Source of the DNA: Thermoplasmata archaeon
Lineage (GTDB): Archaea > Thermoplasmatota > Thermoplasmata > RBG-16-68-12 > JAFNFQ01
Assembly: GCA_041489255.1 (NCBI GenBank)
Contig: JBGPQV010000001.1
Location: forward strand, 324,099-388,098
Direction: 5' to 3'
Length of the DNA: 64,000 nt
Of the stretch, positions 52,953 through 58,970 are shown one piece after another. The notes under the pieces were generated by a model that made no database searches, was not told the origin of the DNA, and was given only the letters and a program-made list of their open reading frames with translations. Both the position numbers and the translations under genes were made by a program. Each line of letters starts with the position of its first letter. The stretch's first letter is position 1.

Positions 52953-53564
52953 TCATCTCTTGTCGGCGACTTGACGCCTTGAACGGGCGGGCACGATGAG
53001 GTCTCTTTCACGGAGCCATGCCTTCAGCCGCTGACGCGCCTGCCATCCGTACTCCTCGGGCAGCAGGTCCGGGATCGCCGGCGCCGCGAGCCGCAGCGTC
53101 TCGATGCCCGCGAGCTCTCTCAGCCGGTTCAGGTCGAGCTCGTTGCCTCGTTCGTGGAGGAGCACCGCCACATCGGACAGGTCCATTTCCCTCCCTGCGG
53201 CCAGCTTGAGGCGGAGGAGGTCCTCAAGGGACGCCGCGAAGACCCTGGTCCCTCCGTAGGAGAGCTCCCTGCCCCGGCGGAACATCTCCTCGTCGATCTG
53301 CACCTCACCGACTGACCGCGTGTAGACGTCCACCTCGCCCACGTCTCGCCCCTTGAACGCGTGCTTCACCAGGTGCGGAGACCTGGAATGGGAGAAGCCC
53401 ATCCCGAGGAGGCAGGAGCGCAGCTCGGGGAAGTCCCTCTCCCGGACGACGAGGTCGATGTCGTGAGTGCTGCGATACGGAGCGTAGCACTCCACGGCGA
53501 CACCGCCGATGAACATCACCCTGTTCCCCAGGCGCACGGCGATGTCCCTCACGACCGCGTTCAC
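52953..53564 (-). CDS. AbiEii/DUF6036-like nucleotidyltransferase (putative type IV TA toxin)
   Basis: IGGVAV..Y...RSTHDIDLVV and SLEDLL.LKL.AGR..D..D motifs; GTGA overlap with the upstream gene. Confidence 0.8.
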   Translation of the reverse strand: MNAVVRDIAVRLGNRVMFIGGVAVECYAPYRSTHDIDLVVRERDFPELRSCLLGMGFSHSRSPHLVKHAFKGRDVGEVDVYTRSVGEVQIDEEMFRRGRELSYGGTRVFAASLEDLLRLKLAAGREMDLSDVAVLLHERGNELDLNRLRELAGIETLRLAAPAIPDLLPEEYGWQARQRLKAWLRERDLIVPARSRRQVADKR

Positions 53565-54190
53565 GTCCGCGCGACTACCTCCTCGAAGACCTTGAGCATG
53601 CAGTCCGCGTCGATGCGCAGCCCCGGCGCGCGGGCCTCCTGGAACTCGATGTAGATCCGAGCGCCGTCGAGCCCGTGCCTGCCGCCGAGACGCACGCAGT
53701 CCTCGACCAGCCGGCGGTGTCCCACGAGGGTGTAGCCTTCCACGGTGTGCGTGTCCGCCAGGGTCTCGTCCGGTGCGCGCAGCAGGATCAGGGTCGCCCT
53801 CTCGCCACGCCCCGCTCTCCTCACTTCGTGCCCTCTAAGGGCCGATTCCCACTCCTCCAGCGGCTTGACATAGGCCCAGGCGGTCGCGGGGGACTGGTAC
53901 CTGGTGAGGAGCCACGCCGCCACGTCGAGGGTCAGAGCGTAGGCGAGACCTGTCTCGCGCGCCGTCTCCCGGAGAAGCCCGGCGGCAGCCAGCGGCCCAC
54001 CCGCGTGGATCAACCTGGTCAAGGTCGTGAAGGGGTCGAGGGCACGATCGAGCGCGTCCCGGGTCTCGCTGGATGGCCGGAGGCGGCCTGTCTCCATCAG
54101 GCTCAGGGCAGTCCTGCTGATGCCCGCGGCGGCTGCGAGTTCCGCCTGGTTGAAGCCCATGCTCAGGCGTCGCTCTTGCAGGTTCATCAT
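53561..54190 (-). CDS. XRE-HTH + AbiEi-like antitoxin
   Basis: NQAELA.AAGISR.ALS.METGR..PS HTH; C-terminal YALT..AAW...Y and G..LV.....D...GGR. Confidence 0.75.
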   Translation of the reverse strand: MMNLQERRLSMGFNQAELAAAAGISRTALSLMETGRLRPSSETRDALDRALDPFTTLTRLIHAGGPLAAAGLLRETARETGLAYALTLDVAAWLLTRYQSPATAWAYVKPLEEWESALRGHEVRRAGRGERATLILLRAPDETLADTHTVEGYTLVGHRRLVEDCVRLGGRHGLDGARIYIEFQEARAPGLRIDADCMLKVFEEVVART

Positions 54191-54210
54191 ATGTTAAGTA
54201 AGGTTAACAT
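54191..54210. promoter_or_regulatory. Candidate autoregulatory operator ATGTTAA-GTAAGG-TTAACAT
   Basis: Perfect 7-bp arms directly abutting the antitoxin start codon. Confidence 0.7.
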
Positions 54211-54584
54211 TGATATTTGAAGGCTCCGGCGGTTCATGTGGCGTTGCAGCTCGAGGGGGTTGTCGTTGCCCATGATTGTGGCGGGAGTGTCGAAGATAAA
54301 CGAGGTCATGCCTCCGTGGCGGGAGATGCAGACGCCGCCATCCTCGCGAACCGACCCGCAGGCGGGGCAGACAATCATCTTGAAGGAATGGCGGGAGTCC
54401 GTCTCGGCGGTGGCGAGAGGCGAGAGGAGGGTGAGAGTAGTCCGCCAGCCGTAGCCGCTGAACCTGTCTGGTGACTCAATCCCGCATAGATATCGTTCGA
54501 CGGCAGTCCTGGCCGTATCCTCGTCATCCCGCCTCATCTGTTCCTCCAAGCCTGACCTCAGGGGAGCTGGCGTCCCCGCGCCGC

Positions 54585-54905
54585 CTAGGCCTCTACTCCT
54601 TCCTCGACAGCCACGCTGACGAGGGATATCCTCCTTCTGTTCTTCTCGAACTCCTCCGGCGTCAGGCATATCATGTCGACTGGGATTCCTCTCCTCCAGA
54701 GCAGCCTCAGCCCCACGGATCTCTTGAGGAAGCCCATGCCGGCGAAGGTCCTGCTGACTATGATCATGTCGACGTCGCTGTCGGGCCTGCTGTCGCCTCG
54801 CGCGTATGAACCGAACACTATGAGCCGGTCTATCGGGACAAGTCGGGAGGCCTCGTTCTTGAAGGCCCTCACACGCCGCATCACTTTAGCCGGGAGCTTA
54901 CCCAT
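54585..54905 (-). CDS. Minimal nucleotidyltransferase (MNT)
   Basis: VFGSYARGD.RPDSDVDMIIVS; GGAGGTG SD; overlaps the HEPN 3' end. Confidence 0.9.
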   Translation of the reverse strand: MGKLPAKVMRRVRAFKNEASRLVPIDRLIVFGSYARGDSRPDSDVDMIIVSRTFAGMGFLKRSVGLRLLWRRGIPVDMICLTPEEFEKNRRRISLVSVAVEEGVEA

Positions 54906-55243
54906 TTCACCACCTCCCTGGAGGCCTTCACCACGTTCCTCACGTCCTCTCTCGTCCCCAGCTCCGGCATGTCCGGATATCTCGTCCCCGTGTATGCAGG
55001 GCTGACGATCGCGCACATCTTCAGTACCTCGGATGGCGCCTCGACCTCAGCGGCGAGCTCGACGAGGTCGTGGCTCCTCCTGAACGTCCCATTCGTCTCT
55101 ATGGACAGCGCCTTCAGGGCCTTTTCGGCAGCCTGCTGCGCGTAGAACGCTGCGGCGTCGTATATCTTCCCTTGGAAGTTGTAGCGAGAAATCATCGCGT
55201 CCCTCTTCGCCCTCCGCATCCATGCCTCGGCTTCTTCCTTCAA
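54881..55243 (-). CDS. HEPN domain protein
   Basis: W..RA..D, AAFYAQQAAEKALKA, SHDL.EL, Y..TRYPD. Confidence 0.9.
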   Translation of the reverse strand: MKEEAEAWMRRAKRDAMISRYNFQGKIYDAAAFYAQQAAEKALKALSIETNGTFRRSHDLVELAAEVEAPSEVLKMCAIVSPAYTGTRYPDMPELGTREDVRNVVKASREVVKWVSSRLK

Positions 55244-55509: not shown

Positions 55510-55794
55510 CGCGAGATCGCCTACCGAAGGAGGGGCTCTTGACGATTCCCGAAGGAGAAGTAGGAGCCATGGCGTCTTGAGACGACGATGGTGTGCCCTT
55601 TCTTCTTCAGCCGGCTCAGAGTCCCGTCCCGCCCTCCCGACCATTGAGAGCAGATGAACGGGCTTCTCAGCGACCCGCTTATGTTCTGAGGGCTATCGAA
55701 TGACCTGGTTACGAACCAGAACTGAGTGGCAGACCTGTGGATCTGACATGTTTGTGGCCTTCGCGTCCATGTCCACAGCCGGAACAGGCTTTCG

Positions 55795-56109
55795 AACGAC
55801 GTGCACAGCTTCTCGGCGCATGCGCACAGGTCTCATGCCAATGCGCACGGCTTCTCGGCGAATGCGCTCAATGTCTCGGCAAATGCGCATAGGAGTCGTG
55901 CGAACGCGCACAGCTCTTCGGCCAATTCGCTCAAGAGTCATGCCAATGCGCGTAGAAGCTGGGAAAATGCGCACAATAGCCGTGCCGATGCGCACAGCTC
56001 CTCGGCGAATGCGCTCAAGAGCTATGCCAATGCGCACAGGAGCTGAGCGAATGCGCTCAATAGTCGTGCGAATGCGCACAACATTCATGCCGATTGACCG
56101 AACATCCGT
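55795..56109. repeat. Array of about 15 x 21-nt units: conserved GCSAATGCGCWCA core + about 8 variable nt
   Basis: Units start at 55795, 55816, 55837 ... 56089 with exact 21-nt period and no indels; terminal units are degenerate. Confidence 0.92.
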
Positions 56110-56251
56110 GACAGTCGGCTCGATGTCCATCCCACCGCTCGGAACATGCATTCAAAATGGCCTCAATCTGGCGTATCCGTGGATGACTGAAAATCAAGAC
56201 GTCGCTGCGCCAAATCAGATGTCCGCCAGCTCACTGAGCCCTCGCAAGAGT

Positions 56252-56611
56252 CTAGTCCTTTGCCGCGGCAGCCTGCTTCTCCCGCCGCTTGATCTTGCTC
56301 CGGATCCTCCTGATAATCTTCGAGTCGGTGCTGTTCTTCCCGTAAGCCCCGATCACTATGTCCAGGTCGCCCGACGCCTTGACCTGAAGGCCACGGGTCA
56401 GCTTCACGGTCTTCTTCGTCGCCTCCTTCGCAGCGACCTTCAAGGACTCCTGCTCGGCGTTCGAACTCACAGCGGTTTCATGCAGCTCCTTCAGCTCCCT
56501 GATCAACTTGTCCGCGTCGATGCCTAGCTTCTTGAGCTTCTCCTTCTCAGTCTCAAGGAGGGTGATGACGTCGGCCGAGAAGCCTATGATCTCCGTCTGA
56601 GACAGACTCAT
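56252..56611 (-). CDS. 119-aa all-helical hypothetical protein with basic C-terminus
   Basis: GGTGGAGG SD before MSLSQTEIIGF; host-like codon usage; ends IIRRIRSKIKRREK. Confidence 0.8.
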   Translation of the reverse strand: MSLSQTEIIGFSADVITLLETEKEKLKKLGIDADKLIRELKELHETAVSSNAEQESLKVAAKEATKKTVKLTRGLQVKASGDLDIVIGAYGKNSTDSKIIRRIRSKIKRREKQAAAAKD

Positions 56612-56867
56612 GTGCCCGTAAACCTCCACCCGATGAGGGGGAGGATAGATATTCCCCCGGTGGCCTCTTAATAGTTTCTCACAGATGTGCCTGAAAGACG
56701 GCAAGCCTGAGGATAAGCGAGGTCCGACCGGGGGATGTCCGCCCGCCCATAGGGAGAACAATCCGATGTTATCAGATTTGTGAACGCTGCCAAGAAGGAT
56801 GCGACCGCGAAGCGGGAGATTCCGCACCCGATGTACAGCTTCGCCTTGATCGTCTTCCCGCTGGGGC

Positions 56868-58970
56868 CTATCTTGCGGAGGCTTCCTCGGTTCCAGTCTT
56901 CTTCTTCATCGCCCTTGTAACAAGAACAACCAGACCTAGAATTAGGATCGCACAGTCCACCGCCATGCCGACTCCGACCACGGGAGGAATGCGCAGTTCC
57001 CCCGTGAGGAACGAGATGACTCCAGTTACCGCCTCTGCAGCGACGAACGGCATCGGGGTGAGGATAAACGCCTTCGCCACCGCCATCCTGTCCTTCCCGC
57101 CCTTCCACGGCTTCCTCCTCGAAGACCAGACTCCCGCCACGAGCAGGACAGTCGCGAAGATGAGGGCCACTATCGGCTTGTAGTTCACCGCCACCTCGGG
57201 CGGTGTCGTCGTCCCCTCAACGGTCACAACGAGCCACCTCTCCCTTTCTGTATTGTTCAGCATGTCGTTGGAGAGATAGGAGATGTTGTGCTCTCCCTCG
57301 GGGAGCGTGAAGCCGCCAGAGTATGTGATCCAGCTCCCGCCATCGATCCTGTACCTGGTGACGTTCACTCCGCATCCCGGGTCTGTGGCGGTGAGGGTGA
57401 ACGCTGTGGCGGTTGTCGCCTGCTCCTCGCTCTTGTGGATAGTCGTGGCGGGAGGAGTGTCGTCCACGGTCAGGTTCATCGTGTTAGAGTCTTCCATGTT
57501 CCCCGCCCAGTCGAGAGATTGCCACTCTATCTTGTGCACTCCTTCCCCTGCCAGGAAGAACGTGCCCGTGGCGGTGTAGTTGACAGGACTCCCGCCATCG
57601 ACCGTGTACGTGGTGTTCCTTATCCCGAGACCGCTCTGGTCGAGGACGGAGAAGTCAAGTGGCGTGGTTGACTTGACGAAGGTCACCGTGGCGGGGGAGG
57701 TGCAGTTTGGAGAGCCGACGACAATGGACGTGATTGGTCCGATTGTCACGTCGATGTTCCATACGTAGATGTTGTTGTCCTCGTTCGACTCAGAGAGATC
57801 GGAGAGCGAGTCCACCGCAACCGCCACAGTTGCGGACTGCGGCGAGTACGGCGCGACCCAGTCCGCATCATACGCTGCACTGGTCTCACCCGCGCCGAGT
57901 GGCGGCACGGTACTACTGTTGAAGGGGGAGGATGGCGTCGTCTCATTGTAGAACGAGACAGTGGTCCACTTCGAGGGGTTCGCCGCTCCCTGGTTTCTCA
58001 CCTGCGCGCTCAACCTCACCGTCATGCCCAGGCCCGTGTGGATCGGAGACGGAGGAAGGGGATTGAACGGGACGTAGTCGGGCAGCCCGGGGACGGTGAC
58101 CCTCGCGACGATCCTCACGACGTTGTTGTCCTTCCTCGACTCAGTCACGTTGGCATAGTTGTCCACTGTGACGTCGAGGTACTTGTCACCCGCCACGGGA
58201 GGTGCGGTCCATGTCACGTTGAGCCGCCAGCCAGCCGGGCGGCTCGAGCGAGGGGGCACGCTCGGGACGTTGAAGAGGCCAAGCGACACCGACGCGCTGG
58301 AGTCGTAGAACGAGACCGTCGTGGGGACGGTGGCACCTGTGAACCCGAAGTTCGAGACATTGGCGGAAACCGTATAGGTGCCGCCCGCCTGCACGGTCAC
58401 AGGGCCCAGGGTCGCGCCTGGAGCGTAGGGCCCGCCGAACTCGGTCCCGGCGAACGCCACCGCGTTCGGGACGAGGTCGACATCAGTAATGACTATATCC
58501 CACCTCTGCCAGTTGTCAAGGATGCTCCAGGCGATGCTGTTGTTCTGCGTGCCGAATGGGGTGAACTCCCCTGGATCCCCCGTCCCGTTGCTCGTCGCAT
58601 TGATCAGCAGCCAAGGCGTGCCGAGGATGTTGCCCGCGTCCACCTGCACTCGGTACCAGTCCCCGTTGCTCCAATTCCTGTCCTTCTCGGTGGCGGGCAG
58701 TACGACGCTGTACGCTCCCATCGACGTCGTGTACCACTGTGGCCATGGCGGGTACCGCCAAGCACTGCTCCAGTCGTTGTCATGATTTACGTAGATTGCA
58801 AAAGAAGTGTTGTTCGCCCACTGCGTGTTGCCGAGGGGCGTGCCGTCGCTCAGGTGGACAAGGCCTGTGAGGTTCATGTCGTCGGCAGCAGCGTGAGCTG
58901 ACGGTGGGATCAGAGTCGCAGGCAGAAGCAAAAGAGATGCCACGATAGCGAACACGCGCCAGCCCGTCAT
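56868..58970 (-). CDS. Surface protein: CARDB domains + Ig-like modules + 3-TM C-terminal anchor
   Basis: Signal peptide; V.N.G...A and VD....V.ES.E.NN CARDB motifs; D.AGN.E and DDTPP.T modules; TMs. Confidence 0.85.
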   Translation of the reverse strand: MTGWRVFAIVASLLLLPATLIPPSAHAAADDMNLTGLVHLSDGTPLGNTQWANNTSFAIYVNHDNDWSSAWRYPPWPQWYTTSMGAYSVVLPATEKDRNWSNGDWYRVQVDAGNILGTPWLLINATSNGTGDPGEFTPFGTQNNSIAWSILDNWQRWDIVITDVDLVPNAVAFAGTEFGGPYAPGATLGPVTVQAGGTYTVSANVSNFGFTGATVPTTVSFYDSSASVSLGLFNVPSVPPRSSRPAGWRLNVTWTAPPVAGDKYLDVTVDNYANVTESRKDNNVVRIVARVTVPGLPDYVPFNPLPPSPIHTGLGMTVRLSAQVRNQGAANPSKWTTVSFYNETTPSSPFNSSTVPPLGAGETSAAYDADWVAPYSPQSATVAVAVDSLSDLSESNEDNNIYVWNIDVTIGPITSIVVGSPNCTSPATVTFVKSTTPLDFSVLDQSGLGIRNTTYTVDGGSPVNYTATGTFFLAGEGVHKIEWQSLDWAGNMEDSNTMNLTVDDTPPATTIHKSEEQATTATAFTLTATDPGCGVNVTRYRIDGGSWITYSGGFTLPEGEHNISYLSNDMLNNTERERWLVVTVEGTTTPPEVAVNYKPIVALIFATVLLVAGVWSSRRKPWKGGKDRMAVAKAFILTPMPFVAAEAVTGVISFLTGELRIPPVVGVGMAVDCAILILGLVVLVTRAMKKKTGTEEASAR

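Follow-up and report, generated by a model that had tools for sequence, protein, structure and literature searches.

A recurrent archaeal module pairs the gene of a small, predicted all-helical protein with a probably non-coding 21-bp tandem array

Plasmid iterons, recognized by Rep proteins (R6K, RK2, F, P1, pPS10), are direct repeats of about 17–22 bp, or roughly two helical turns, which lie beside the gene of their binder. In the partition centromeres parC, tubC and sopC, tandem phased sites are cooperatively coated by a small dimeric protein (ParR, TubR and SopB, respectively), of which TubR has a winged-helix fold. Type III toxin-antitoxin loci such as ToxIN carry an array with a period of about 36 nt upstream of the endoribonuclease toxin gene, read through a terminator, and TIGR-Tas loci combine a Nop-domain Tas protein with arrays containing unique dual spacers. 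Here we describe a locus in a 64,000-nt stretch of a Thermoplasmata archaeon (assembly GCA_041489255.1, contig JBGPQV010000001.1, positions 324,099–388,098; hereafter the window, 60% G+C), in which the gene of a 119-amino-acid (aa) protein is followed by about 15 tandem units of 21 bp, a length equal to two turns of B-DNA. The gene and its array form a real, recurrent module, and the array is very probably a gene-linked DNA element that is non-coding, phased and dyad-symmetric.

Iteron/Rep loci, type III toxin-antitoxin loci, TIGR-Tas and CRISPR each depart from this module in at least one defining feature, and partition centromeres appear to do so as well. Like iterons, the array consists of phased two-turn repeats adjoining a small-protein gene. 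In contrast to Rep, the small protein has no Rep-like family or fold (Pfam, NCBIfam, PDB); the units are dyad-symmetric and not purely direct, and about 15 of them make up each of at least 26 arrays per 2.7 Mb, rather than a single origin. The partition centromeres share the tandem phased sites, and a facultative winged-helix partner of the module recalls TubR; however, the constant neighbour here is predicted to be all-helical without a strand, which is not a ribbon-helix-helix architecture, and it occurs in many chromosomal copies. No motor gene (ParM, TubZ, ParA) was found among the recurrent neighbours in an all-against-all comparison, a result that did not include a family search aimed at ParM or TubZ. 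ToxIN resembles the module in joining a small repeat array to a protein gene, but here the array lies downstream of the gene behind a terminator-like T-run, its period is 21 nt, it gives no RNA structure signal, and neither ToxN nor any PADLOC family is present. Unlike TIGR-Tas, the module has no Nop or other Pfam family and no unique spacers; unlike CRISPR, it has 21-nt units that lack unique spacers, and no cas gene occurs among the scanned neighbours in the window.

Tandem repeats of constant size (20–21 nt, with a range of 20–23, or 52 nt) and variable sequence have been described in bacteria by Subirana and Messeguer, who call them enigmatic in the passages cited here (PMC8161180, PMC6749651, PMC8625621). 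The authors suggest a protein that requires a constant size in order to polymerise on DNA (PMC8161180). As far as those passages go, their repeats resemble ours in being non-coding and in occurring as many arrays per genome with one unit size and differing sequences. They differ in that the host here is archaeal and that our arrays follow a small-protein gene and are dyad-symmetric; the same passages name no linked gene. The literature searched, supplements excepted, contained no description of a gene-linked 21-bp array, and only the papers of Subirana and Messeguer surfaced. The module thus adds to the fixed-size repeat puzzle an archaeal case in which a candidate reader is encoded next door (a new helical family with a predicted dimer), together with a facultative winged-helix partner and dyad symmetry. 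A class of these puzzling constant-size repeats may find its explanation in such a pairing.

The small gene has 14 matches in its own 2.74-Mb genome, and a profile search gives 16 at E<1e-8. Periodicity around the paralogues was measured as lag-21 identity in 210-nt windows on either side of the gene. Downstream it reaches at least 0.48 in 11 of 14 paralogues and at least 0.45 in 13 of 14, while all upstream values are 0.40 or less. When 1.84 billion representatives were searched with a profile, 356 clusters, mostly of 120–130 aa, matched at E≤1e-3. In 80 metagenome loci, some of them near-duplicates, lags from 6 to 66 were compared, and the strongest was counted if its identity reached 0.48. 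Downstream of the gene this was lag 21 in 27 loci, lag 42 in seven and lag 63 in three, together 37 of 57 evaluable loci, whereas upstream one of these three lags is strongest in only 4 of 58. An earlier note, made from the letters of the window alone, had proposed an undescribed protein-plus-repeat module and recommended a periodicity analysis downstream of homologues; the homologues do carry arrays, and the module recurs both in paralogues and at metagenome loci.

Across the genome, 62 regions (16.5 kb) are periodic at lag 21, against 17 at lag 18, none at lag 20, four at lag 22 and 12 at lag 24. One unit size is kept across arrays of differing consensus. Some of the 62 regions are short stretches within long, well-scoring genes, and about 26 are long arrays without any coding-scoring frame. 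Among 27 arrays of this genome, 14 lie beside a family gene or its C-terminal fragment, and the only constant neighbour of the arrays is the small gene or its 3' end. Several contigs have a terminus within a 21-bp array or immediately past the small gene (G000 C9:92–449, C16:81–470 and C7:98174–98361; G001 C80, C81 and C73). Because arrays break assemblies, the copies counted are a minimum.

Members of the family were detected in 6 of 41 relatives and in 5 of 301 genomes of the class, all of them in two genera of one order; the named records with family relatives are metagenome-assembled genomes labelled Methanobacteriota or Thermoplasmata archaeon. No relative was found on viral contigs. The nearest clusters in the ESM Atlas are bacterial hypothetical proteins from Acidobacteriota and Chloroflexota (scores 0.95–0.96), which we treat as a lead only. 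One remote relative from the search of representatives (P0095) is called as a single protein of 425 aa, in which two helical-domain copies precede a tail with heptad periodicity (lag-7 identity 0.51). In its sequence the tail resembles a translated 21-nt array, which hints that the pairing of gene and array extends to distant homologues.

In the window, the module and its immediate surroundings have the following parts:

56252..56611, minus strand: small-protein gene, 119 aa, stop codon TAG, from the open reading frame (ORF) list
56110..56251, minus strand: spacer between gene and array, with T4 runs only, at +58 and +94 after the stop
55795..56109, no strand: array of about 15 units of 21 bp, very probably non-coding, dyad-symmetric, with core GCSAATGCGCWCA and palindrome TGCGCA
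55693..56151, minus strand: 152-aa open frame (xRIx) spanning the array, from the ORF list, not regarded as a gene
55612..55794, no strand: post-array flank, still part of the conserved module, 79% identical to the same-genus orthologue over 168 nt
56612..56828, minus strand: upstream block, a promoter region or an unknown element, conserved above the level of the gene

The array keeps a single register from 55795 to 56109 without indels, and 13 of its units are clean (55816–56088). The first unit begins 143–164 nt past the stop of the gene, at lower coordinates. This bears out the layout given in the earlier note, namely a helical, basic-tailed protein of 119 aa and, about 140 nt downstream of its gene, some 15 indel-free units of exactly 21 nt with a core of about 13 nt that holds TGCGCA. 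Identity of the array to itself is 0.60 at lag 21, 0.64 at lag 42, 0.61 at lag 63 and 0.64 at lag 84, and no lag from 1 to 129 other than the multiples of 21 exceeds 0.40. Tandem Repeats Finder reports a period of 42 (4.9 copies) and a period of 84 (2.4 copies, 81% matches), both with 0% indels. The motif AATGCGCWCA occurs six times in the window, always within the array, against an expectation of 0.31, and none of 100 shuffles reaches six.

Within the unit, the conserved block comprises the contiguous columns 1–13, with wobble at columns 3 and 11; conservation is therefore not 3-periodic. The remaining eight bases alternate among a few related types and so build a 42/84-nt higher-order repeat, which means that they are not unique spacers. 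The fixed core that had been noted thus stands, but the eight bases beside it are not unrelated to one another from unit to unit, and a CRISPR- or TIGR-like layout of constant core and variable spacer is not supported.

The frames of the array were described accurately from the start: the minus-strand xRIx frame (ORF 55693–56151) and the plus-strand MRT frame are open, and the plus-strand ANAH frame contains TGA stops. The 152-aa xRIx frame is open in this genome and in that of the same-genus orthologue, with the same start and stop. Under a codon model trained on 599 long ORFs, the best array frame scores −0.027, compared with +0.187 for the small gene, +0.128 for a neighbouring CARDB gene and +0.095 for a HEPN gene. 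Between the orthologues, the small gene shows 26 synonymous and 28 non-synonymous codon differences, with substitutions distributed 22/14/36 over the three codon positions. The 152-aa frame shows 13 synonymous and 76 non-synonymous differences, distributed 35/52/39, and the other array frames give 28/62 and 22/60, without a synonymous excess in any of them. Conservation extends about 90 nt beyond the stop of the 152-aa frame. Among 40 non-redundant metagenome arrays, a stop-free frame exists on the strand of the gene in 22, on the other strand in 28 and on neither strand in 11, and two long arrays in this genome have no spanning open frame. An ordinary heptad-repeat (coiled-coil) gene, the alternative that the earlier note had set against its own proposal, was rejected, since no frame is conserved under purifying selection and 11 of the 40 arrays are closed in all six frames.

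Dyad symmetry was assessed by comparing each array with its own reverse complement, using column-permuted versions as controls. In 33 of 51 arrays, the identity to the reverse complement exceeds that of 95% of the controls. For the window array it is 0.48, compared with 0.38 ± 0.028 in the controls (z 3.8), none of 200 of which reaches this value. The dyad in question is a 6–8-bp palindrome around TGCGCA. Short inverted repeats within the unit stand out in about 10–13 of 26 arrays (in 10, at most 2 of 200 permutations reach the observed count; 13 are at 0.025 or less); in the window array they are not enriched (arm 5, loop up to 7; 6 observed against 4–6 expected). In two close paralogues, a shared extended half-site takes opposite orientations relative to the gene, with 5 against 0 and 0 against 2 copies, which are small numbers. 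Double-stranded sites for symmetric dimers would be expected to show such strand symmetry, whereas coding sequence would not. The symmetry also makes the frames on the two strands look alike.

The units of an array evolve in concert and turn over as whole units. Alignment of the window array with that of its orthologue requires one 42-nt gap, and two gaps of 21 nt separate the arrays of another orthologous pair. The units of the window array share a mean pairwise identity of 0.65 and those of the orthologue 0.56, compared with 0.52 between the two arrays, and GCGCAT is present in 11 of 13 units here against 2 of 13 there. Arrays evolve faster than the small gene; those of different paralogues have no unit sequence in common, and the window array has no second copy in the genome at the DNA level. 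Contigs from three other sediment samples span the module with 0 differences, which is uninformative about variation within the population. Of the three roles considered in the earlier note, a DNA scaffold best fits the dyad symmetry, the whole-unit steps and the missing coding signal.

The 119-aa protein matches no Pfam, NCBIfam, PADLOC or PHROGs family and no PDB sequence, returning only single sub-threshold rows. An AlphaFold (AF2) model built on a 16-row alignment has a mean predicted local distance difference test (pLDDT) score of 89.6 and contains helices at residues 5–21, 23–28, 33–90 and 95–117. The last 29 residues (91–119) carry a net charge of +8, and the C-terminal part is the most conserved stretch of the family; many remote relatives carry an added Pro/Thr-rich tail. 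At two loci (G000 C2:253071–253346 and C36:7403–7747), a second copy of the 3' end of the gene lies behind the array and encodes the basic motif and a Pro-rich tail, with 83% identity between the loci. The stop codon is TAG (56252–56254 in the window) in 10 of 12 full-length paralogues, compared with 34% of ORFs of at least 300 aa, a count that is not an independent test because the paralogues share descent.

The protein is predicted to form a symmetric antiparallel homodimer. The modelled dimer scores 0.68, compared with 0.00 for the best of three controls, and the mark applied to this score is reached by 20 of 30 proteins solved as one-chain pairs and by 1 of 23 solved as single chains. Three dimer runs agree in at least 90% of contacts, with a partner pLDDT of at least 82. 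The predicted contacts 57–57 and 61–61 put the two-fold axis midway along the long helix; the modelled chains therefore run antiparallel, and each end of the dimer carries a basic helix. Foldseek found no match in the PDB at E≤0.001, its best rows being Rop-like helical hairpins at E≥3. In a wide VIA-align search the best Z was 8.5 over 53 residues, and all rows were of a generic long helix; a match to a TIGR-TasR chain (Z 6.7) is such a row and was regarded as noise.

A run of at least five T (T5–T8) lies 53–140 nt past the stop in 10 of 12 full-length paralogues, compared with 2.7% of random 160-nt windows, and a hairpin precedes the T-run in two of them. Only T4 runs follow the stop in the window copy. 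With a terminator-like T-run after the gene, the array probably lies outside the transcript of the small gene. Immediately upstream of the small gene, and on its strand, a gene of 140–180 aa is found at 7 of 17 modules in this genome and at 14 of 59 metagenome loci. Its product gives sub-threshold matches to Crp-like, TrmB, MarR and PadR helix-turn-helix models, on the strength of which we take it for a winged-helix DNA binder. The window module has neither such a gene upstream nor a relic of one. The same winged-helix type heads seven larger proteins of 370–900 aa encoded at other places in the genome (among them G000 C12:62142–64835, C20:31498–33438 and C1:119439–120833). All other neighbours vary from copy to copy; in the all-against-all comparison, only the winged-helix gene and PKD surface proteins recur. 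Large ORFs are not enriched near modules or arrays, 11 of 28 of which have an ORF of 650 aa or more less than 1.5 kb away, compared with 58% of random segments.

Our preferred reading, held tentatively and at somewhat less than an even chance, is that the dimer encoded next door reads the array and polymerises on it, which would make the array a phased DNA platform. The small all-helical protein would pair into a symmetric antiparallel dimer ending in strongly basic helices. Its gene is closed by a terminator-like T-run and followed, about 100–400 nt on, by a tandem array of exact 21-bp period, very probably non-coding, whose dyad-symmetric cores would all face the same side of the helix. The array would then serve as double-stranded DNA, a phased landing platform to which the symmetric protein would bind once per unit, building up a nucleoprotein filament by polymerisation. 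The likeliest reader would be the protein encoded next to the array; in the quarter to 40% of modules that also have a winged-helix gene immediately upstream, the window copy not among them, the winged-helix protein may help or replace it. We infer that the protein binds the array, that it does so as one dimer per unit, and that the complex has a cellular role, for example in local chromosome organisation, insulation or silencing. A broader version, in which the module is a novel, self-contained protein–DNA address system, each paralogous dimer recognising its own phased dyad array and polymerising on it to give a dozen or more orthogonal filament-forming pairs per genome, and in which the same principle of a gene-linked array held at two helical turns explains the bacterial 20–23-nt repeats, seems to us unlikely. 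If the preferred reading is true, Thermoplasmata-type archaea would have a new family of DNA-organising proteins, represented by a dozen or more protein–array pairs in each genome. The module also turns an open descriptive puzzle into one that can be tested at the bench, in terms of whether the protein coats its own array and whether this depends on the 21-bp spacing.

Several observations weigh against a reader encoded alongside. In 13 of the 27 arrays of this genome, three of them at contig ends, there is no adjoining family gene, so an array can persist without such a reader. The gene of the same-genus orthologue contains an in-frame TAG (L010:1501–1857) and its array has nevertheless been kept. 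The fold searches gave generic helical matches only, and thus no DNA-binding fold is recognised in the protein. The basic C-terminal motif is near-identical in all paralogues, whereas the array cores differ (TGCGCA, ACATGT, GCATGC and others), and even the array of the window's orthologue has switched its core, with GCCGGT or GCCGAT in 7 of 13 units where GCGCAT prevails here. A near-constant motif and varying cores fit contact with the DNA backbone, or a common partner, better than base reading by the C-terminal helix. The link is also weaker in the second genus, represented by 11 distinct loci (12 rows, one a duplicate), two of which have only 221 and 667 nt of downstream sequence. There, 21 is among the top downstream lags (≥0.48) in 4 of 11 loci, in one of them tied with 43, and it is the best upstream lag (0.47–0.51) in three other loci.

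The main rival, which we consider rather unlikely, holds that the array is a selfish or neutral satellite. It would be a passenger or by-product of a small cassette recombining into gene ends; unequal crossing-over would have maintained the 21-bp period of a single ancestral array, and the job of the protein would be unrelated. Arrays without an adjoining gene fit this explanation, as do near-identical modules (92–96%) between unrelated flanks in two genomes, three arrays that follow only a C-terminal fragment of the gene, the two modules with a second copy of the 3' end past the array, the fragment of an ETF-alpha gene end that adjoins the window module, the fast and concerted change of the arrays, and the breaking of contigs within them. 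However, arrays with no remaining similarity hold the 21-bp period without indels, enrichment of dyad symmetry in the majority of arrays is not expected from drift, and the period sits downstream of the gene far more often than upstream of it. In the passage cited, the same period is also reported for bacterial arrays that are unrelated, vary in sequence and keep a constant size (PMC8161180). A DNA platform might instead be read by a factor encoded elsewhere, either a winged-helix regulator or a chromatin protein, with the small protein accessory or unrelated. The winged-helix genes beside modules, the seven larger proteins headed by the same type, the constancy of the basic motif against varying cores and the orphan arrays would all suit such a factor, yet most modules, including that of the window, lack an adjoining winged-helix gene, and the sole constant neighbour is the small gene or its 3' end. 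We judge this explanation distinctly unlikely.

We likewise give little probability to a role as RNA, in which the array is transcribed and the basic helical protein binds the repeat RNA, whole or cut to unit size, as in type III toxin-antitoxin systems or guide-RNA arrays. The basic tail would be suited to this, the position of the array behind a terminator may indicate a separate transcription unit, and bacterial 52-nt satellites are reported, in the passage cited, to be transcribed (PMC8625621). Against this, the fold energies of the array do not stand out from those of shuffles (z −0.92 on the strand of the gene, −1.66 on the other), its units read alike on both strands, and the motif common to close paralogues is flipped relative to the gene. 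It also belongs to no Rfam family, scans at the gathering threshold and at E≤1 having given a tRNA elsewhere and one chance miRNA row, and its supposed spacers are not unique sequences. Among 24 public runs, no RNA data set was listed as a carrier. Scarcely credible, finally, is a heptad-repeat or hypervariable peptide encoded in one of the open frames, the latter having been among the earlier suggestions. Twenty-one nucleotides are seven codons, and the 152-aa frame on the strand of the gene is open between the same start and stop in two genomes; but synonymous differences are not in excess in any frame, codon scores lie near zero, the open strand is inconsistent among arrays or altogether missing, the conserved block of 13 contiguous bases is not 3-periodic, and conservation continues past the stop of the frame.

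Conservation of the window module against its same-genus orthologue is uneven. The block upstream of the gene is 94% identical between the two species over 207 nt and about 97–99% identical across 56660–56821, compared with 81% for the gene, and the spacer between gene and array is about 75–80% identical. The upstream block (56612–56830) matches no Rfam family and has fold z-scores of −2.4 on the minus strand and −3.1 on the plus strand. Beyond 56828 and 55612, the flanks of the two modules are unrelated.

Downstream of the module, the window contains two toxin-antitoxin-like pairs (52956–55243): a HEPN protein with a nucleotidyltransferase at 54585–55243, and an HTH_3 (helix-turn-helix) protein with a DUF2204-like nucleotidyltransferase at 52956–54193. 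These would agree with the defence-like island that had been suggested for the locus; however, both pairs are absent at other copies, neighbours differ for each paralogue and no PADLOC family is found, which leaves the idea unsupported for the module. On its other side, the module is preceded by the gene of a 700-aa CARDB surface protein. Abutting the module at about 56826–56885, and overlapping the 3' end of the CARDB gene, is a fragment of the end of an ETF-alpha gene (Pfam ETF_alpha, E 2.6e-4, under the cut-off), which has an 88% match on another contig (G000 C39:133–193). At the same place, the same-genus orthologue (L032:1603–1764) has a 54-codon gene end without a Pfam match at E≤0.01, which we take from its motif to be ETF-alpha-like. 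The fragment in the window looks like a displaced gene end beside an insert.

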